Shown here one piece after another: positions 4,883 through 11,584 of a DNA stretch of 11,603 bases. The notes beneath the pieces are model-generated. The model was not told the origin of the DNA. It saw only the letters and a list, made by a program, of their open reading frames with translations, and did no database searches. Numbering within the stretch: position 1 is the stretch's first letter; every line of letters starts with the position of its first letter. The translations under genes were made by a program, and so were the position numbers. This DNA comes from Planctomycetota bacterium. GTDB taxonomy: Bacteria > Planctomycetota > Phycisphaerae > SM23-33. The DNA is taken from assembly GCA_029553505.1 (NCBI GenBank), contig JAKPKY010000249.1, positions 1 to 11,603 on the forward strand. Reading direction: 5' to 3'.

Positions 4883-4911
4883 GGCGGACCTTTTCGGGTT
4901 CGCCTTTTTTA
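4883..4911 (+). terminator. Rho-independent terminator for tRNA-Ala: GGCGGACC-ttttcg-GGTTCGCC then TTTTTTATTT
   Basis: 8-bp GC-rich stem (one G:T wobble) followed by a T-run; the T-run overlaps the TAA stop (4911-4909) of the convergent minus-strand gene. Confidence 0.7.
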
Positions 4912-6192
4912 TTTCCCCGCCTTGGTTTCCGGAGGGGCTTCGCTCGCAACCATTGATTCCCTAAGGCATTGGAACGCCTCGCTCATCCGGACGGCGTCCG
5001 GCTCGCCCGAAGCGTCGAAGACCATCGCCATGGGCGCGGCGTTGAGGCCGGGACGGACTTTCGCCCCCGCGACGACCAGCCAGCGGTGCCACTTGCCGGC
5101 CGAGGGCGTCAGCACGCTGAAAATTTCCGTCGCCGTCTCGCCCGCCTGCCAGGACTTGTGGACCAGGACGAGGTATCCCTTGTCGCGGAAGTGTTGCAGG
5201 TAGGTGTCCAGGACGGCCTGCGGCGTCTTGGCCGACCGCCCCGCCAGCGCGCGGGCGAACAGCAGCCCGCCCGGCGCGGGCGTGAGGTACAACTGGGCGT
5301 AGGGTTCGATCTCGGCAACATACTTTCGTTCGCCGCGTTCGAAGCGGACCCAGCCCGTCGGGGGCCTGACCTCGATTCGCAAAGGCCCGTCGCGTTTGGA
5401 GACGGCCTGTCCGGGCGCGGCGGCGGGCGTCTCGGCCAGCGCCTTGACCAGCGCTGCCGCGAAGGGCTCGTAGAGCTTCCGCTCTCCCTCGGCCTGGTGG
5501 TCGGGCCCGCGCGGCGGGGCCTTGCCTGCCGCGACGGCCTCCAGCCAGGCGTCCAGCGCGTCGTCGGGCTCGACAAACTCCAGGCCCTCGCCCAGGCGCG
5601 TGTCGAGGGTGAAATTCGCGTCAGCGCCGTCCGCCGTCTGTCGCCACATCGTCAGCGTGCCGGCCGCGTCTTGCGGGCGCGTGCCCACGCTCACCCAGAC
5701 GGGCACGGACGCGGGCGGCTTCCACAGGCCGATCGACTCGCCGGATTTTTCCACCGGCGTCACGGAGTTCAGCACGATCCCCGACAGGCGTTGCGGGTTC
5801 AGAGAGGCCAGCGCCAGCGCCGTCGGACCGTTGGCGGCGTCGGCGACGAGCAGGAACTTCCGCGCGTCGAGGGGCTTTCCCTCGGCTGCCCGGTCCACGG
5901 CCGCCAGCAACGCCCCGACGCGCGAGGCGTCGAGTTTTTCCCCGGCCGCCGGGCGAAACACGAAGAAGCCCTTGGCGAGCAGCCGCGGAGTGAAGTGCTC
6001 CGCCGCGCCGCGCGGCCCCTCGGCCGCCAGCAGCAGCGCGGCAGGACGCTTGCCTTCGGCCGCCTTGGGAGTCAGGACCGCCAGGTTGACGGGCTCCGCC
6101 GACTGCGACGCCGGCTGCGACGCCGCATCGGCCCCCATGGCGACGGCCACCAAACCCGCCCACGCCACTGCCGCAACGATGTGCCTGTTCAT
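4909..6192 (-). CDS. Secreted hypothetical protein, 427 aa (signal peptide MNRHIVAAVAWAGLVAVAMGADA); ORF is open upstream to a TTG at 6270 but that extension overlaps the MITE-like repeat
   Basis: Long ORF with non-artefactual composition (many K/E/F/W/Y); N-terminal hydrophobic signal sequence from ATG 6192; no motifs I can assign to a family. Confidence 0.55.
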   Translation of the reverse strand: MNRHIVAAVAWAGLVAVAMGADAASQPASQSAEPVNLAVLTPKAAEGKRPAALLLAAEGPRGAAEHFTPRLLAKGFFVFRPAAGEKLDASRVGALLAAVDRAAEGKPLDARKFLLVADAANGPTALALASLNPQRLSGIVLNSVTPVEKSGESIGLWKPPASVPVWVSVGTRPQDAAGTLTMWRQTADGADANFTLDTRLGEGLEFVEPDDALDAWLEAVAAGKAPPRGPDHQAEGERKLYEPFAAALVKALAETPAAAPGQAVSKRDGPLRIEVRPPTGWVRFERGERKYVAEIEPYAQLYLTPAPGGLLFARALAGRSAKTPQAVLDTYLQHFRDKGYLVLVHKSWQAGETATEIFSVLTPSAGKWHRWLVVAGAKVRPGLNAAPMAMVFDASGEPDAVRMSEAFQCLRESMVASEAPPETKAGK

Positions 6193-6245: not shown

Positions 6246-6385
6246 CCAGGCTCTGTCTGAAAACTCGCAATCCGGGGGTGCCACGGCTTGCTTGTCAAGC
6301 CGTGTCGCCGCAAGAACACTGCTTGCAAGCAAGCAGTGCCACCCTTGTGGATACATCTGGCGAGGAGTTTTCAGACAGAGCCTGG
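6246..6385. mobile_element. MITE-like element, 140 bp: perfect 21-bp terminal inverted repeats (CCAGGCTCTGTCTGAAAACTC 6246-6266 / GAGTTTTCAGACAGAGCCTGG 6365-6385) flanked by TAG on both sides (6243-6245, 6386-6388); carries two GC-rich palindromic hairpin modules
   Basis: Inverted repeat and flanking TAG direct repeat read directly from sequence; no ORF inside; sits in the divergent promoter region between the 4909..6192 gene and mutY. Confidence 0.4.
6274..6344. repeat. Two adjacent palindromic hairpin modules (R1 family) inside the MITE-like element: GGGGGTGCCAC-GGCTTG-cttgt-CAAGCC-GTG (6274-6304) and, in opposite orientation, CACTGCTTGC-aa-GCAAGCAGTGCCACCC (6317-6344)
   Basis: The reverse complement of the second module (GGGTGGCACtGCTTGCTTGCAAGCaGTGTTC) is near-identical to 10304-10336 (GGGTGGCACgGCTTGCTTGCAAGCcGTGTTC). 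Confidence 0.6.
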
Positions 6386-6486: not shown

Positions 6487-7572
6487 GTGAAGCTCTCCCC
6501 AAAGATCGTCGAAGACGTCCGGAAACGCCTGCTGGACTGGTATCGCCGCCACTGCCGCGAGATGCCCTGGCGGCAAATCCGCGACCCCTACGCCATCTGG
6601 ATTTCCGAGATCATGCTCCAGCAGACGCGGGTGACGGCCGTCGTGCCCTACTTCCGCCGATTCCTGGAGCGATTCCCCGACGCAGCGTCGCTGGCCCGGG
6701 CCCGCCTCGACGACGTGCTCAAGGCATGGGAAGGCCTGGGCTACTACAGCCGCGCGCGGAACCTCCACGCGGCCGCCAAGCGCGTCGTGGCCGACTTCGG
6801 CGGGGCACTGCCCCGCAGCGTCGAGCAACTCCGCTCGCTGCCGGGCGTGGGGCAATACACGGCCGGGGCCATCGCGAGCATCGCGTTCGGCCTGGACGAA
6901 CCCGTGCTGGACGGAAACGTGACGCGCGTGCTGTGCCGCCTGCTGCGCGTGGAATCCGACCCGCGCAGCGGCGCGACGGTGCGCGGGCTGTGGGCGGCGG
7001 CGCGGCGGCTCGTGCCGCGCGGAAAGGCCGGCCTGTTCAACCAGGCGATGATGGACCTTGGCGCGACCGTCTGCACGCCGCGCAACCCCCGCTGCGGCGC
7101 CTGCCCGCTGGCGACGCCCTGCCGCGCCCGCGCAGCCGGCGTGCAGGAGCAACTGCCGCGCAAGGCCTCCCGCAAGCCCCTGCCGCACCACACCGTCGTC
7201 TGCGCGATCGTCCGCCGGCGCGGGCGCATCCTCCTGGGCCGCCGCCGGGAAGAGGGACTGCTGGGCGGCCTGTGGGAATTCCCCGGCGGGAAGGTCGAGC
7301 CCGGCGAGTCGCTGCCGCAGGCCCTCGCGCGGGAAGTGCGAGAGGAAGTCGGCCTGGACATCCGCGTGGGCGAGCGGCTGGCCGTCGTCGAGCACGCCTA
7401 CACGCACTTCCGGATCACGCTGCACGCCTTCGACTGCCGGGCGGACAACGGGCGGGCGCGGGCGCTCGGCTGCCAGCGCGTCCGATGGGTCCGCCCAAAC
7501 GAACTCGACCAGTACGCCTTCCCCCGCGCCAACCGCCGCATCCTCCAGGCCATCACGGAATTTTCGATTTGA
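6487..7572 (+). CDS. mutY: A/G-specific adenine DNA glycosylase MutY with C-terminal NUDIX/MutT-like domain, 361 aa
   Basis: LLDWYRRH..R.MPWR, EIMLQQTRV, helix-hairpin-helix LPGVGQYTAGAIASIAFG, catalytic D in VLDGNVTRV, 4Fe-4S Cys cluster CTPRNPRCGACPLATPC, C-terminal WEFPGGKVE NUDIX-like fold; GTG start at 6487 is the first in-frame start after the promoter; the long upstream extension of the ORF (from 4969) is antisense to the previous gene. Confidence 0.9.
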   Translation: MKLSPKIVEDVRKRLLDWYRRHCREMPWRQIRDPYAIWISEIMLQQTRVTAVVPYFRRFLERFPDAASLARARLDDVLKAWEGLGYYSRARNLHAAAKRVVADFGGALPRSVEQLRSLPGVGQYTAGAIASIAFGLDEPVLDGNVTRVLCRLLRVESDPRSGATVRGLWAAARRLVPRGKAGLFNQAMMDLGATVCTPRNPRCGACPLATPCRARAAGVQEQLPRKASRKPLPHHTVVCAIVRRRGRILLGRRREEGLLGGLWEFPGGKVEPGESLPQALAREVREEVGLDIRVGERLAVVEHAYTHFRITLHAFDCRADNGRARALGCQRVRWVRPNELDQYAFPRANRRILQAITEFSI

Positions 7573-7615
7573 GATTTGACCTTCGGTCCTCGGTCTTCGG
7601 TATCCGGTATCCGGG
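7566..7615. repeat. Heptanucleotide tandem repeats: GATTTGA x2 (7566-7579, overlapping the mutY stop) then YYTCGGT-like x5 (CTTCGGT CCTCGGT CTTCGGT ATCCGGT ATCCGGG, 7581-7615)
   Basis: 7-bp periodicity read directly from sequence. Confidence 0.75.
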
Positions 7616-7725
7616 TTCCTTTCCGGGCGATGGTCGCGGCGCTGTATGGGGATTTCTTTGTTGCGAGCGTCTTGGCGACCACTCCCTTACGGTCGTGGCT
7701 CTGTAAAAGCCCGAGGCACAATTCG

Positions 7726-7858
7726 CGATTTCCGATTGCCTGCTGCCTATTGCCTTCTTCCCTCAGTCCTCCCAATTGTCAATTGACAATCGACAATTGA
7801 CAATTTCTCACCACTCTCCACTCTGCACTCTCCACTCTGCACTCACCACTCTCTCCTG
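7726..7858. repeat. Continuous-phase array of 19 imperfect heptamers. Units: CGATTTC, CGATTGC, CTGCTGC, CTATTGC, CTTCTTC, CCTCAGT, CCTCCCA, ATTGTCA, ATTGACA, ATCGACA, ATTGACA, ATTTCTC, ACCACTC, TCCACTC, TGCACTC, TCCACTC, TGCACTC, ACCACTC, TCTCCTG
   Basis: 133 bp in which sub-arrays of distinct unit sequence (TGC-type, CAATTG-type, CACTC-type) follow each other without breaking the 7-nt phase; lower GC than the flanks. Confidence 0.75.
7775..7790. promoter_or_regulatory. Perfect 16-bp palindrome ATTGTCAATTGACAAT (two CAATTG cores) embedded in the heptamer array; candidate operator for a dimeric regulator
   Basis: Self-complementary on inspection; ~100 bp upstream of the putative nfeD promoter. 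Confidence 0.4.
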
Positions 7859-7992: not shown

Positions 7993-8628
7993 ATGACGGA
8001 ATGGTGGACGCACCTGACGATGCTGAACCAGTCGTTTTACGTGGCGGCGGGGTTCTTCAGCATCATCTTCCTGTGGCAGTTCATCGGCGCGATGCTGGGC
8101 ATGGGCCACGGCGACGTGGACCTGCATCTGGACGCGGGCGCCGACGCCGCCGACGTCGGCGGCGACAGCCTGGAGGCGCACTCGGCGCACGAGGCAGCCG
8201 ACAGCGCCGCGGCCTTCAAGGTGCTCTCCCTCCGCGCGGTGCTGGCGTTCTGCACGATGTTCGCCTGGGCCGGGGCGCTGTACCTGAACCTCGGCACGCG
8301 CGTGGCGATCGCCCTGCTGTACGCCCTGGCGTGGGGCCTGGCGGGCTGGGCGCTGGTGGCGGTGCTGGTGAACTGGATGCGCCGCCTGTCCGAGAGCGGC
8401 ACGCCGCGCCTGAGCTCGTGCGTGGGCACGACGGGCACGGTGTACCTGCACATCCCGGCCGGCGGGTGCGGCGAGGCGCGCGTGATGGTCAGCGGGGTCA
8501 TCTCGACGGTCAAGGCCCGCGCCGCCGACGGCGGGCAGATGGTCGCGGGCACGCCCGTCCGCGTGACCGCCGTGCTGGATCACTCCACGATATCGGTCGC
8601 CCCTGTCACGGGGGAGAAAACTGCCTGA
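7993..8628 (+). CDS. nfeD: NfeD-like membrane protein (short NfeD/YuaF type): N-terminal TM helices plus C-terminal OB-fold beta-barrel, 211 aa
   Basis: AAGGAG SD 7 nt upstream of the ATG; two or three hydrophobic helices (FYVAAGFFSIIFLWQFIGAMLG, AVLAFCTMFAWAGALYL, IALLYALAWGLAGWALVAVLV) then GTVYLHIPAGGCGEARVMVSGVISTVKARAADGGQMVAGTPVRVTAVLDHSTISV typical of the NfeD C-terminal domain; sits immediately upstream of a flotillin gene, as in the B. subtilis yuaF-yuaG pair. Confidence 0.75.
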   Translation: MTEWWTHLTMLNQSFYVAAGFFSIIFLWQFIGAMLGMGHGDVDLHLDAGADAADVGGDSLEAHSAHEAADSAAAFKVLSLRAVLAFCTMFAWAGALYLNLGTRVAIALLYALAWGLAGWALVAVLVNWMRRLSESGTPRLSSCVGTTGTVYLHIPAGGCGEARVMVSGVISTVKARAADGGQMVAGTPVRVTAVLDHSTISVAPVTGEKTA

Positions 8629-8779: not shown

Positions 8780-10270
8780 ATGAACGCAATGACGGCAATG
8801 CCGGCCCTTCTGGCGGCGACGGGCGACGAGGGGGGATTCCCCACCGGGGTCGTGCTGACGCTGATGCTCCTGGTCATCGGGTTCGGCGTGCTGATGTTCT
8901 TCTTCAGCCGCATCCGCCGGTGCCCCTCCAACAAGGTGCTGGTCATCTACGGGAAAACGGGCAGCGGCGCCGCGCGGTGCGTGCACGGCGGAATGGCGTT
9001 CGTCTGGCCGCTGATCCAGGCGTACGACTACCTGGACCTCGAGCCGTTCGTCGTGCCGATCGACCTGACCAACGCGCTGTCGCAGGAGAACATCCGCGTG
9101 TCGGTTCCGACGACGGTGACGGCCGCCATCTCCAACCAGCCGGGCGTCATGGAAAACGCCGCCATCCGACTGCTGGGACTGACGCGCGGGCAGATTCAGG
9201 CGCAGGCGCAGGACATCATCCTCGGGCAGATGCGCGCGGTCATCGCCACGATGAAGATCGAGGACATCAACCGCGATCGCCAGGCGTTCATGAGCGCGGT
9301 GAACGAGGCCGTGACGTTCGAGTTGGAGAAGATCGGCCTGGGCGTCATCAACGTCAACATCCGCGACATCGAGGACGAGTCGGGATACATCAAGGCGCTG
9401 GGGCGCAAGGCGGCGGCCGAGGCCATCAACCAGGCCAACATCGACGTCGCCGAGCAGGAGAAGCGCGGGCAGACGGGCGTGGCCGAGCGCCAGCGCGACA
9501 CGCGCATCGCGGTGGCCAACGCCAACGCGCTGGCGGACATCGGCGAATCGCAGGCCAGCCGCGACCGGCGACAGAAAGTCGCCGGGCTCGAGGCGCAGGC
9601 GGTCGAGGCCGAAACCGACGCCGACGCCAAGAAGGCCTCCTACCGCGCCAACCAGCGCGTGGCCGAGGAGCAGGCGCGCAACCGGTCGGAATCGGCCGGC
9701 AAGGAGGCCGACGGCGCCATCCGCGTCGCGCAGGAAGTCGCCCAGAAAAAGGCCGAGGAAGCTCGCGCCCAGCGCGAGCAGGCGCGCCTGAACGCCGAGG
9801 TGGTCGTGCCCGCCAACGCCCAGCGGGAGAAGGTCATCATCGCCGCCGAGGCCGAGAAACAGCAGTCCATCCGGATCGCCGAAGGACAGGCCGCCGCCAC
9901 CCTCGCCAAGATGCAGGCCGAGGCCAAGGGCGTCCAGGCCATCCTCGACGGAAAGGCCGAGGGCTACCAGCGACTCGTCGAGGCGTGCAAGGCGGCCGAG
10001 CAGGTGGCCGCCCTGCTGCTCATCGAGAAGCTCGCGGACGTCGCGGCCGTCCAGGCCCAGGCGATCAAGGACCTGCCCATCGAGAAGGTCATCGTCTGGG
10101 ACGGCGGCGGCGACGGCGAGGGCGGGCTCAAGGGGCTGGGCGGACGGCTGCTCGGGGCCCTGCCGCCCATGCACGACCTGGCCAAGCAGGTCGGGCTGGA
10201 GCTGCCGGAGTTCCTCGGGCGCATCGCGGCGGAAGCCAACAAGACGCCAAAGCCCGCCAAGGACGCCTGA
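8780..10270 (+). CDS. floT: Flotillin-like SPFH/band-7 protein, 496 aa
   Basis: AAAGGAA SD 9 nt before ATG 8780; N-terminal membrane hairpin (GVVLTLMLLVIGFGVLMFFF) then SPFH domain (KVLVIYGKTGS..., IEDINRDRQAF, GYIKALGRKAAAE); long Ala/Glu/Gln-rich coiled-coil (EA-repeat) region; C-terminal KVIVWDGGGDGEGG. The in-frame extension back to 8663 has no SD and is judged artefactual. Confidence 0.88.
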   Translation: MNAMTAMPALLAATGDEGGFPTGVVLTLMLLVIGFGVLMFFFSRIRRCPSNKVLVIYGKTGSGAARCVHGGMAFVWPLIQAYDYLDLEPFVVPIDLTNALSQENIRVSVPTTVTAAISNQPGVMENAAIRLLGLTRGQIQAQAQDIILGQMRAVIATMKIEDINRDRQAFMSAVNEAVTFELEKIGLGVINVNIRDIEDESGYIKALGRKAAAEAINQANIDVAEQEKRGQTGVAERQRDTRIAVANANALADIGESQASRDRRQKVAGLEAQAVEAETDADAKKASYRANQRVAEEQARNRSESAGKEADGAIRVAQEVAQKKAEEARAQREQARLNAEVVVPANAQREKVIIAAEAEKQQSIRIAEGQAAATLAKMQAEAKGVQAILDGKAEGYQRLVEACKAAEQVAALLLIEKLADVAAVQAQAIKDLPIEKVIVWDGGGDGEGGLKGLGGRLLGALPPMHDLAKQVGLELPEFLGRIAAEANKTPKPAKDA

Positions 10271-10296
10271 CGCGGCGTGACGTTTCCCGCAAGCCG
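10271..10296 (+). repeat. 26-nt direct repeat CGCGGCGTGAcGTTTCCCGCAAGCCG immediately after the floT stop (copy 1; copy 2 at 10901-10926)
   Basis: 25/26 identity with 10901-10926; leader segment of the REP-like composite element. Confidence 0.7.
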
Positions 10297-10303
10297 CGGC
10301 GAC

Positions 10304-10338
10304 GGGTGGCACGGCTTGCTTGCAAGCCGTGTTCATAC
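10304..10338 (+). repeat. R1 palindromic module GGGTGGCAC-GGCTTG-cttg-CAAGCC-GTGTTCAT (9-bp stem hairpin)
   Basis: Near-identical to the reverse complement of 6312-6344 and related to 6274-6304. Confidence 0.65.
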
Positions 10339-10367
10339 CTCGCGCATGCGTGCGGGGCACTACGGAT

Positions 10368-10440
10368 GGGTGCCACGGCCAAGCGCTGTCTGCTTGGCCG
10401 TGCGGACACCCTCAAGCACACGACGCTTGAGGGTGGCACC
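10368..10440 (+). repeat. R2 element, 73 nt, predicted three-way junction: outer stem GGTGCCA/TGGCACC; hairpin 1 GGCCAAGC-gctgtct-GCTTGGCC; linker GTGCGGACA; hairpin 2 CCCTCAAGC-acacgac-GCTTGAGGG
   Basis: 70/73 identical to 10936-11008; lies in the 5' leader of the bPH gene. Confidence 0.7.
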
Positions 10441-10460
10441 TGCCCAAGACGGAGTGAACC

Positions 10461-10910
10461 ATGGAAATGACGATGGAGATTCAGCGCCGCAAGGTGGAGA
10501 GTTACCTGCTCTGGCAGGCGGCGCTGACGTTTCTGCTGATCGGGGTGTGCACGTGGGGCGTCGGCCTGGCCGTGGGGTTGTTGTACCTGCTGACGTTCGG
10601 CCCGTACGTCGCCCGCCGGCGGGCCGAGGCGCTGGAGTACCGCCTGGACGGAACGACCGTGCGGATCCGCGAGGGATTCCTCTTCATCAAGCACAAGAGC
10701 ATCCCGCTGGACCGCGTGACGGACATCGTGATGGACCAGGGCCCGCTGCTGCGGCACTACGGGCTGTGGACGCTGAAGCTCCAGACGGCCGGCGTCGGCC
10801 AGGGGCGTGCCGAGGGCGTACTGTACGGCCTGACGGAACCCGAGCGCATCCGCGAGATGCTGATCGCCGCCCGCGACCAGGCCGCCCGCCGCGGCGACTA
10901 CGCGGCGTGA
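10461..10910 (+). CDS. Bacterial PH-domain (bPH_2 / YdbS-like, DUF304-type) membrane protein, 149 aa
   Basis: GGAG 8 nt upstream of the ATG; two N-terminal TM helices (LLWQAALTFLLIGVCTWGVGLAVGLLYLLTF) followed by a ~90-aa domain with the characteristic IPLDRVTDI...QGPLLRHYGLWTLKLQTAG pattern of bPH_2 proteins. Confidence 0.75.
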   Translation: MEMTMEIQRRKVESYLLWQAALTFLLIGVCTWGVGLAVGLLYLLTFGPYVARRRAEALEYRLDGTTVRIREGFLFIKHKSIPLDRVTDIVMDQGPLLRHYGLWTLKLQTAGVGQGRAEGVLYGLTEPERIREMLIAARDQAARRGDYAA

Positions 10911-10926
10911 TGTTTCCCGCAAGCCG
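10901..10926 (+). repeat. 26-nt direct repeat CGCGGCGTGAtGTTTCCCGCAAGCCG (copy 2); its first 10 nt encode the last three codons and TGA stop of the bPH gene
   Basis: 25/26 identity with 10271-10296. Confidence 0.7.
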
Positions 10927-10935
10927 GGTCTATCT

Positions 10936-11008
10936 GGGTGCCACGGCCTGGCGCTGTCTGCTTGGCCGTGCGGACACCCTCAAGCACACGACGCTTGAGG
11001 GTGGCGCC
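10936..11008 (+). repeat. R2 element, copy 2 (GGGTGCCACGGCCtgGCGCTGTCTGCTTGGCCGTGCGGACACCCTCAAGCACACGACGCTTGAGGGTGGCgCC)
   Basis: 96% identical to 10368-10440; differences are AA->TG in the hairpin-1 5' arm (weakens pairing) and A->G in the outer stem (keeps G:U). Confidence 0.7.
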
Positions 11009-11026
11009 CAACAGTGGGCGTCGGGG

Positions 11027-11060
11027 AAAAAAAGAACGCCGCCTCTGTGAGGCGGCGTTC
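11027..11060 (-). terminator. Rho-independent terminator of the cold-shock gene: perfect 12-bp stem GAACGCCGCCTC / GAGGCGGCGTTC, 3-nt loop, followed on the minus strand by a T7 run
   Basis: Read directly; 25 nt downstream of the csp stop; also closes the convergent bPH transcript (no T-run in that direction). Confidence 0.8.
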
Positions 11061-11084
11061 CTGTGATTCATGCCGCGGGCGGGA

Positions 11085-11285
11085 TTAGCCCTTGCGGACG
11101 TTGACGGCCTTGGGGCCCTTCGGACCCTGCGTCAGGTCGAACGTCACGGTTTCGCCTTCGGCCAGCGACTTGAAGCCTTCGCCCTGGATGTCTCCGTGAT
11201 GGACGAACGCATCGGTGCCGTCATCGGCCGTAATGAATCCGAAACCCTTGGAATCGTTGAACCACTTCACCTTGCCGGTTGCCAT
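11085..11285 (-). CDS. cspA: Cold-shock protein, CspA family, 66 aa ([18 protein letters not shown]...)
   Basis: RNP-1 KGFGFI and RNP-2-like VFVHH motifs; AAGGAG SD 8 nt upstream of the second ATG (11285); the first ATG at 11291 is too close to the SD. Confidence 0.9.
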
Positions 11286-11291
11286 ACTCAT

Positions 11292-11503
11292 GGCTCCTTG
11301 TCATCAGGCACGTTTGTTCTCGAGCGTGTTCTCAAGCAACGAAACCGCAACGGTGAAGGGATTCACGGGGGCGGAAGACCTGAGTGTCAACTGTAGAAGA
11401 ATGCGAGTGCCGATCGTATTCGCCGGCGGCAAGCGAGGAACCTTTCCCCGCGGACCGTCAGCCATGTTGACTCAGGGTAGCGTTCCGCGCGGGGGAAGTC
11501 AAA
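11292..11503 (-). promoter_or_regulatory. Long (~200 nt) 5' untranslated leader of the csp gene, with a possible promoter TTGACT - 17 nt - TACCCT near 11470-11503 (minus strand)
   Basis: Csp genes typically carry long structured 5' UTRs; the hexamers are weak; the 67-aa ORF 11387..11590 here is judged spurious. Confidence 0.3.
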
Positions 11504-11517
11504 GCAATTCGCAAATA

Positions 11518-11584
11518 TCCCGCGCGCGGTTTCGCGGCGGCGCGCGGGAAACGACAACGCCCACGGAGGGCTGTCCGTGGGCGT
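11518..11584. other. Two GC-rich hairpins: CCCGCGCGC...GCGCGCGGG (11519-11548) and CGCCCACGGA-gggctg-TCCGTGGGCG (11559-11584, followed by TTTGCATTTG)
   Basis: Possible terminator(s) of an upstream minus-strand gene beyond the window, or a plus-strand terminator; read directly. Confidence 0.3.

Follow-up and report, generated by a model that had tools for sequence, protein, structure and literature searches.

The 149-amino-acid bPH_2 gene in the 11,603-nucleotide stretch of Planctomycetota DNA analysed here (contig JAKPKY010000249.1 of assembly GCA_029553505.1, hereafter the window) is bracketed by a direct repeat that we read as two-layered. One layer is a 27-nt leader that appears confined to this locus. 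The other is a 74-nt element which we identify, with a probability of roughly 80%, as a repetitive extragenic palindromic (REP) doublet similar to REP doublets forming hairpins (REPINs) and to bacterial interspersed mosaic elements (BIMEs), belonging to a family dispersed in the intergenic DNA of Phycisphaerae and other Planctomycetota. The observations behind this identification are the structure of the element, its dispersal, its avoidance of genes, the heads-outward pairing of its units, their covariation and, in related genomes, their adjacency to genes for the tyrosine transposases associated with REPs (RAYTs).

A repeat search of the window returned two direct repeats around the bPH gene (10461-10910, forward strand; a YdbS/YdbT-like membrane protein matching Pfam PF03703 at E = 4.9e-14). 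The first is 27 nt long (10270-10296 versus 10900-10926; 26/27 identical, 96%) and the second 74 nt long (10367-10440 versus 10935-11008; 71/74 identical, 96%). They are clearly the best in the window, where the other direct-repeat families are at most 50 nt long and about 70% identical, and they are the 26-nt (25/26) and 73-nt (70/73) repeats described in a sequence-only reading of this DNA, which had trimmed each by one base. All four copies are annotated on the forward strand. The first base of leader copy 1 (ACGCGGCGTGACGTTTCCCGCAAGCCG) is the last base of the stop codon (10268-10270) of the SPFH/flotillin gene (8780-10270, forward) that lies upstream. The last bPH codons, GCG GCG TGA (10902-10910), fall inside leader copy 2, which encodes Ala-Ala-stop of the protein just as that reading had stated. 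The linkers that join leader and 74-nt element are unrelated, copy 1 having one of 70 nt and copy 2 one of 9 nt. As doublets, the 74-nt copies were placed at 10368-10441 and 10936-11009, the latter with three substitutions relative to the former.

Side-by-side comparison of copies gave a simple grammar for the REP unit, namely a GGGTG(C/G) foot and, after it, a hairpin opening with CAC and closing with GTG. Two of these units make up the 74-nt element, inverted relative to each other so that both feet point outward. In copy 1, the foot GGGTGC leads into hairpin 1 (CAC GGC CAAGC gctgtct GCTTG GCC GTG, 10374-10402), the spacer CGGA follows, and hairpin 2 (CAC CCT CAAGC acacgac GCTTG AGG GTG, 10407-10435) ends in GCACC. 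Read on the opposite strand, hairpin 2 is the unit of hairpin 1 except for the triplet beside CAC (GGC versus CCT, with its complement) and the loop. The element is a heterotypic doublet of two unit subtypes, GGC-CAAGC and CCT-CAAGC, and because these differ each unit folds on itself and not on its partner. The outward-facing feet would then pair with each other and close a three-way junction. Such a junction is the minimum-energy fold of copy 1, with an outer stem GGUGC/GCACC around two G+C-rich hairpins (-48.2 kcal/mol, z = -6.3; 0/200 shuffles equally good). The reverse strand of the unit adopts the same fold and is as stable as the forward strand (-49.0 kcal/mol), and copy 2 folds with -43.7 kcal/mol (z = -3.6). 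An outer stem enclosing two GC-rich hairpins had already been proposed from the sequence, and both the fold of copy 1 and the covariation across copies agree with it.

Seven REP hairpins occur in the window, six of them found by a hairpin-aware scan and the seventh being the degenerate second half of copy 2. They occupy three intergenic gaps, two downstream of co-oriented genes and one a divergent promoter gap, and the motif GGGTGSCACKGC occurs five times against 0.76 expected. Besides the two doublets around bPH there is a single unit of the R1 type (10304-10334, forward; unit 10304-10331), with the foot GGGTGG and the hairpin CACGGCTTGC-ttg-CAAGCCGTG (+TTC). The sequence at 6314-6344 is 94% complementary to the R1 hairpin at 10304-10334, GGGTGGCACGGCTTGCttgCAAGCCGTGTTC.

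One genome per GTDB species was scanned with the pattern GGGTGCCACGGC-N35-65-GTGSCACC, which matched at least 113 stretches. Units with foot and hairpin were present in 86 of the 113 stretches listed, nearly all of them from metagenome-assembled genomes (MAGs) of Planctomycetota and mostly from Phycisphaerae. Family stretches were found under the labels Phycisphaerae, Phycisphaerales, Phycisphaeraceae, Tepidisphaerales, Algisphaera, Pirellulales, Gemmatales and Thermoguttaceae, and several MAGs had at least six to nine genome-scan matches each. The 27 listed stretches without any hairpin comprised 26 non-planctomycete chance matches (Streptomyces, Micromonospora, Pseudomonas and others) and one Pirellulales locus (L015). 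When a unit was defined as a GTGSCAC 7-mer with a CAC...GTG hairpin of 8 bp or more, 411 of 1256 7-mers qualified in family loci versus 0 of 172 in control loci; this definition excludes the RAYT-flanking units with GGGTGGCAG feet described below, which were recognised by reading the flanks. The 411 units, from 1.08 Mb of loci, comprise 250 distinct hairpin sequences of 19-37 nt, and the foot is exactly GGGTGC in 281 of the 411. They form 139 heads-outward pairs with spacers of 4-33 nt versus a total of 14 in the other arrangements (6, 5 and 3), and 133 units are single. At most 21% of units fall inside the coding mask, although this mask, which is crude and generous, covers 76% of bases. Ten typed doublets of the window's own type could be positioned relative to crude gene calls, and all ten were intergenic. 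MAGs labelled Rickettsiales, Anaerolineales and Armatimonadota (L055, L068, L091 and L094) also had canonical units and doublets with the GGGTGC foot; either these contigs are planctomycete DNA that may have been misbinned, or the family may extend beyond Planctomycetota.

In metagenomes, the hairpin type of the window was matched in more than 120 stretches. At least 11 metagenome doublets of 73-77 nt have the geometry of the window's element and different flanks, with a mean column identity of 92%. The window itself corresponds, at 99.9% identity, to the JGI metagenome contig Ga0116243_10005928, whose 18.6 kb is the DNA seen for this organism. At least nine contigs from the same sample as L002, one assembly of the bPH locus, have similar coverage and carry the window's hairpin type. 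Since the 74-nt unit recurs in other contexts, it is part of a dispersed family. The sequence-only reading had likened the repeat to REP/BIME-type palindromes and had set against this a duplication present only here; with the unit in at least 11 other contexts and the grammar in hundreds, the comparison with REPs and BIMEs has held.

The stems of the units covary. Among 13 close copies, 98.1% of stem cells are paired, and the position beside the CAC triplet shows C:G, U:A, A:U and U:G. A covariance model was built from these 13 copies and 100 sources were searched with it, giving 57 aligned hits from many lineages. In this alignment 98.4% of cells are paired versus 28-43% when the partners are slid, both sides change in 19 of the 29 pairs, and there are 247 compensatory cells versus 68 in shuffles. 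The foot helix, of six pairs, shows no covariation in the 57-hit alignment.

A motif screen of the fetched loci identified one HUH/Y1 open reading frame (EHVHLL...YIHRNP; HVH...YIHRNP), in L205. It matched Pfam Y1_Tnp with E = 6e-8, the only profile used on this reading frame itself. A unit of the GGGTGCCAC-CCCCAAGC type, GGGGGTGCCAC-CCCCAAGC...GCTTGGGGGTG, lies a few tens of bases beyond its C-terminal homology. The L205 reading frame (reverse strand, about 855-1420) contains an in-frame TAA, either the mark of a pseudogene or a sequencing error, and its homologues run about 30 residues further (a tblastn match spans residues 5-184 of P0009). At E <= 1e-10 the reading frame has over 3,700 homologues, about 188 amino acids long, many of them on contigs of about 1 kb. 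All four that were tested (P0038, P0117, P0090 and P0009) pass the NCBIfam model NF047646, 'REP-associated tyrosine transposase', with 93-102 bits against a cutoff of 80; a phmmer search of P0038 against PDB sequences gave no match. The RAYT genes of L241, L247 and L248, from three Phycisphaerae/Phycisphaerales genomes, have flanking inverted hairpins with outward feet (GGGTGGCA.../...TGCCACCC), for example GGGTGGCAGCGGCAAGC-aac-GCTTGCCGATGG upstream and CCATCGGCAAGC-agt-GCTTGCCGATGCCACCC downstream. In L241, about ten further ...CTGCCACCC/GGGTGGCAG... hairpins lie in the intergenic gaps nearby, and only two bare 7-mers lie within genes. A RAYT gene with such flanking hairpins is the arrangement known as a REPtron. 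In L248 (GCA_035527675.1, positions 9800-11550) the RAYT gene is additionally flanked by tandem arrays of repeats of about 92 nt, which carry CGCTTGAGGGTGCCACG upstream and GTGGCACCCTCAAGCG downstream and lie about 3 kb upstream of an NfeD-flotillin pair.

By analogy with characterised REP/RAYT systems, we propose that a RAYT of the HUH/Y1 class most likely recognises the hairpins in the form of single-stranded DNA and spreads them; RAYT-type genes flanked by such units exist in related genomes. We infer that a RAYT would mobilise the units in the window's organism as well, and that the units may act on mRNA ends.

The history of the locus was followed in a sister MAG, GCA_003485185.1 (labelled Phycisphaerales; L237 and L238 are one and the same sequence), which is 84-92% identical to the window across homologous blocks. 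Its bPH protein has 89% amino-acid identity and the same C-terminus, ...RRGDYAA-stop, with the same ACGCGGCGTGA. The interval from flotillin to bPH contains a diverged leader (AGGCCGCGTGACGTTTTCCGCAAGCGG) and an orthologous doublet, a 77-nt variant of copy 1. The R1 unit belongs to a block of about 56 nt missing from the sister MAG, which for its part has 62 extra nt immediately ahead of the bPH ribosome-binding site, including a long single unit; R1, described from the sequence as a hairpin inserted into copy 1, is indeed a separate module and a lineage-specific indel. After bPH the sister MAG continues with ACGCGGCGTGACGTTTCACGCAAACCC and then the 3' end of a convergent radical-SAM gene, the two stop codons being 5 nt apart, and no REP doublet was found downstream of bPH. 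The window and contig L251 do not have this gene. In its place are 90 nt made up of the 9-nt linker, doublet copy 2 and 7 nt. The indel is bounded by 10926-11015 in the window and 771-2201 in L238, so that copy 2 stands where the sister MAG has a 1.4-kb radical-SAM/B12-binding gene between bPH and the cold-shock gene csp.

Two claims made from the window alone were not borne out. It had been suggested that the end of bPH was remodelled by repeat insertion; since the sister MAG has the same bPH end without the downstream hairpin pair, the C-terminus was not recently created in this way. The leader had also been counted as part of the repeat element, but it does not belong to the repeat family: a fuzzy search allowing up to five mismatches found 0 copies of the 27 nt outside this locus in 1.28 Mb of related loci; the 32-nt block at 10335-10366 was likewise found at this locus only. 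Judging from the alignments, both leader sites are older than the separation from the sister MAG's lineage, and the leader appears to be an old paralogous sequence confined to this locus. The two leader copies match at about 20 of 27 positions in the sister MAG (manual count) versus 26 of 27 in the window, which suggests homogenisation, and they were probably made near-identical in the window lineage by gene conversion. Leader copy 1 can form a hairpin, CGCGGC...GCCGCG, of 6 bp with a 16-nt loop. The sister stem, GCCGC...GCGGC (L238 118-145 versus window 10271-10298), has one compensatory G:C to C:G change by eye, and the loop GUGACGUUU(C/U)CCGCAA is almost unchanged between the two. This hairpin after the flotillin stop codon may be a functional motif.

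Comparison with the sister MAG identifies doublet copy 1 as the ancestral one and copy 2 as present only in the window lineage. Because the two copies share three private states (loop CTGTCT, spacer CGGA and loop ACACGAC), copy 2 probably derives from copy 1 or from a common master copy. REP units at this locus were thus gained and lost within about 10% sequence divergence, in one case exactly at a gene-sized indel. A more distant genome, GCA_035527675.1 (flotillin 79% identical), served as the outgroup. There the NfeD-flotillin pair is directly followed by a convergent aminotransferase gene, and no bPH gene, leader-like sequence or REP was found after flotillin. It therefore follows that bPH entered this position in the clade of the window and the sister MAG. 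No excision variants were seen, since all four assemblies seen keep bPH and a look-up of the 496-amino-acid flotillin returned only the bPH-containing arrangement; recombinational loss of bPH through the 27 + 74 nt of homology is possible in principle.

Three other explanations were weighed. The strong stem covariation would also fit selection at the RNA level, with the three-way junction acting as a strand-specific functional RNA, be it a stabiliser of mRNA 3' ends, a terminator or a small RNA. Both window copies lie just downstream of co-oriented genes, and enterobacterial REPs protect mRNA 3' ends, a role that is established for them. However, both strands fold alike (-48.2 and -49.0 kcal/mol), no T-run follows the element, the family adjoins a transposase gene, and Rfam gave no match on the elements over the whole window even at E <= 1, the only matches being the tRNA and a sub-threshold cspA leader. 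The orientation of doublets relative to neighbouring genes is also mixed: they are sense in the window, L228 and the sister L238, antisense in L120, L138 and L202, and placed in a divergent gap in L118 and at window position 6276. Neither the strand-specific conservation nor the fixed orientation expected of a structured RNA was found. The mixed orientation, the equal folding of both strands and the absence of an Rfam match argue for an element acting at the DNA level rather than a strand-specific RNA gene, and we regard the latter as quite unlikely. The doublets may have a secondary, exapted effect on mRNA decay or 3' ends.

The other two explanations concern how the repeats came to surround bPH. 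The 27-nt repeats could be a scar, as a duplicated target or an att-like site, left when a cassette containing a REP cluster and bPH inserted long ago downstream of flotillin, the last bPH codons being supplied by the target. This would account for bPH following flotillin only in the clade of the window and sister MAG (the outgroup flotillin precedes the aminotransferase), for the leader-like sequence bracketing bPH in both lineages, and for the unrelated contexts and longer, different C-termini of more distant bPH homologues. Yet target duplications are seldom as long as 27 nt, there is no recombinase, nothing resembling the leader follows flotillin in the outgroup, the leaders of the sister MAG match at only about 20 of 27 positions, and the C-termini of the bPH family are not conserved in any case; we consider such a scar unlikely. 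A purely local segmental duplication of leader and element around bPH, with no family behind it, could be argued from the leader being known only from this locus and from the private loop CTGTCT, spacer CGGA and loop ACACGAC shared by the two doublets. It is refuted for the 74-nt unit by the at least 11 other contexts and the hundreds of occurrences of the grammar, and the linkers are unrelated (70 nt versus 9 nt), both leader sites predate the split and the sister MAG lacks copy 2, making it very improbable as a whole. An integron attC site or gene cassette was also considered and rejected, as the leader has GTTTCCC and not GTTRRRY, there is no inverse core, and no integrase is encoded in the 18.6 kb.

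Several points weigh against the REP-doublet interpretation or parts of it. For this organism the copies seen are the seven units in 18.6 kb plus those on at least nine same-sample contigs. No RAYT gene lies in the same 18.6 kb, and the transposase is linked to the window by family and not by genome. The covariation alignment was fitted to the model and holds both strands of near-palindromic hits, and the invariance of the foot across lineages was partly imposed by the search patterns. The foot is neither the GTAG nor the CGTC tag of described REP superfamilies (PMC3733652), nor is it the CnGA of class 3 elements (PMC6006769). As for the history of the locus, gene conversion between the leaders is argued from 27 nt only, and the outgroup lacks the entire bPH region, so that the radical-SAM indel may be either a gain or a loss.

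The planctomycete elements share several defining features of REPs and REPINs. They have a short palindrome with a conserved unpaired tag, although this tag differs from GTAG/CGTC, as well as many dispersed extragenic copies at the level of the family and a preference for inverted pairs. RAYT genes flanked by the same units were seen in L205, L241, L247 and L248, and none within the organism's 18.6 kb. In the BIMEs of Escherichia coli, Y and Z REPs alternate in orientation and are joined by defined linker motifs, which bind IHF or gyrase. Like BIMEs, the planctomycete doublets are mosaics of two REP subtypes in inverted orientation, cluster with additional lone units (R1 in the window and one of 43 nt in the sister MAG), are intergenic and often follow genes, and are gained or lost between close relatives; they have no sequence similarity to BIMEs, and the 27-nt leader is not a recurrent linker motif. 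The spacers CGGA, CGAA, CGGAAGA and CGATAGA are too short for an IHF site.

The REPINs of Pseudomonas fluorescens, with their GTAG foot and RAYTs (Bertels & Rainey 2011, PMC3116915), resemble the family in having two short inverted palindromic units with a short spacer, extragenic and dispersed in many copies per genome, and a single small HUH/Y1 transposase gene flanked by units, which in our case is found in related genomes. The planctomycete family differs in its foot, which is GGGTG(C/G)CA(C) instead of GTAG, and in its host phylum, Planctomycetota, and its mobility is here proposed by analogy. In addition, many planctomycete doublets are heterotypic, with a predicted three-way junction instead of one long hairpin. 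The tag with stem-loop, the frequent head-to-head dimers and the RAYT association are further shared with the REP superfamilies tagged GTAG and CGTC (Di Nocera et al. 2013, PMC3733652) and with the TnpA-Y1 class 2/3 'REPtrons', of which class 3 has a CnGA foot (Quentin et al. 2018, PMC6006769). In both papers some repeats of this kind, or Y1 genes, are recorded from Planctomycetes; neither GGGTG nor CACCC appears as a string in PMC3733652. The CnGA foot fits the spacer CGGA but was rejected as a match as it is inconsistent across copies. Some planctomycete doublets differ from described REP families in being nested in longer palindromes.

One such case is the third doublet of the window (6276-6344, forward), which is of the R1 type (GCTTGC-ttg-CAAGC) and reads GGGTGC-CACGGCTTGC..GTG, a 12-nt spacer and CACTGCTTGC..GTG-CCACCC. 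It is enclosed in a composite palindrome of 140 nt (6246-6385; -88.5 kcal/mol, z = -8.1) with perfect 21-nt terminal inverted repeats, CCAGGCTCTGTCTGAAAACTC / GAGTTTTCAGACAGAGCCTGG, and TAG on either side. The palindrome occupies the divergent gap between a 427-amino-acid gene (4909-6192, reverse) and mutY (6487-7572, forward). A 93%-identical copy occurs in the sister MAG at another site, after truB (L237 5277-5417; L238 5146-5275). With its terminal inverted repeats, TAG flanks and recurrence at another site, the 140-nt element looks like a miniature inverted-repeat transposable element (MITE) that carries or has captured a REP doublet, whereas the 74-nt doublets have no terminal-repeat or target-duplication signature, target duplications not having been surveyed systematically. 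Doublets of the CCCCCAAGC type in other metagenome contigs have comparable extended palindromic flanks.

The gene order in the window is purA (reverse), a tRNA, the 427-amino-acid gene (reverse), mutY (forward), a 243-amino-acid repeat protein, the NfeD-like gene (7993-8628, upstream of flotillin), flotillin, bPH and csp (11085-11285, reverse). The intrinsic terminator of csp (11029-11068, reverse) lies 20 nt beyond doublet copy 2. The sub-threshold Rfam match (11029-11370, reverse) is to the cspA thermoregulator RF01766, with 55.5 bits versus a gathering score of 78 (E = 4e-12), and covers the csp gene, its 5' leader and its terminator. The JGI contig L003 (4176-4615) is about 454 nt longer than the window at about 7610-7733, within the region of the 243-amino-acid reading frame (7069-7800). 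The extra sequence is a 204-nt tandem repeat of 2.2 copies with 96% matches, in a gene without a Pfam match; either the assemblies or strains vary in copy number here, or the repeat collapsed during assembly. The N-terminus of bPH also shows a minor difference between strains or assemblies, the JGI contig L251 having ATGTACATG at 5682-5690 and the window ATGGAAATG at 10461-10469.

The kind of element is already known, and a published description in this group of planctomycetes was not found: a literature search combining repetitive extragenic palindromic with Phycisphaerae gave no paper in the library searched, and one for the strings GGGTGCCAC/GTGGCACCC gave only unrelated primer matches. For the locus itself, recent re-tailoring of bPH by the repeat is no longer supported. 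In planctomycete MAGs many contig ends coincide with these repeats and many RAYT homologues come from contigs about 1 kb long, which would fit the repeats causing assembly breaks. A more speculative reading, in which we place little confidence, is that the foot GGGTG(C/G)CA and one RAYT clade have been kept across Phycisphaerales, Tepidisphaerales, Sedimentisphaerales, Pirellulales and Gemmatales while the stems diversified. This would be an unusually old, vertically inherited REPIN-RAYT partnership with heterotypic doublets acting as three-way junctions that mark hot spots of gene gain and loss; if so, the hot spots here would be the bPH cassette bracketed by the 27-nt repeats and the 1.4-kb radical-SAM indel at copy 2. 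To our knowledge, REP/REPIN-RAYT systems have been studied almost entirely in Proteobacteria. The Phycisphaerae family extends them to a poorly studied and mostly uncultured phylum, with a different foot, heterotypic doublets and an identifiable RAYT clade, and its repeats provide a simple sequence marker for the lineage and flag intergenic sites with gene-sized indels between close relatives.

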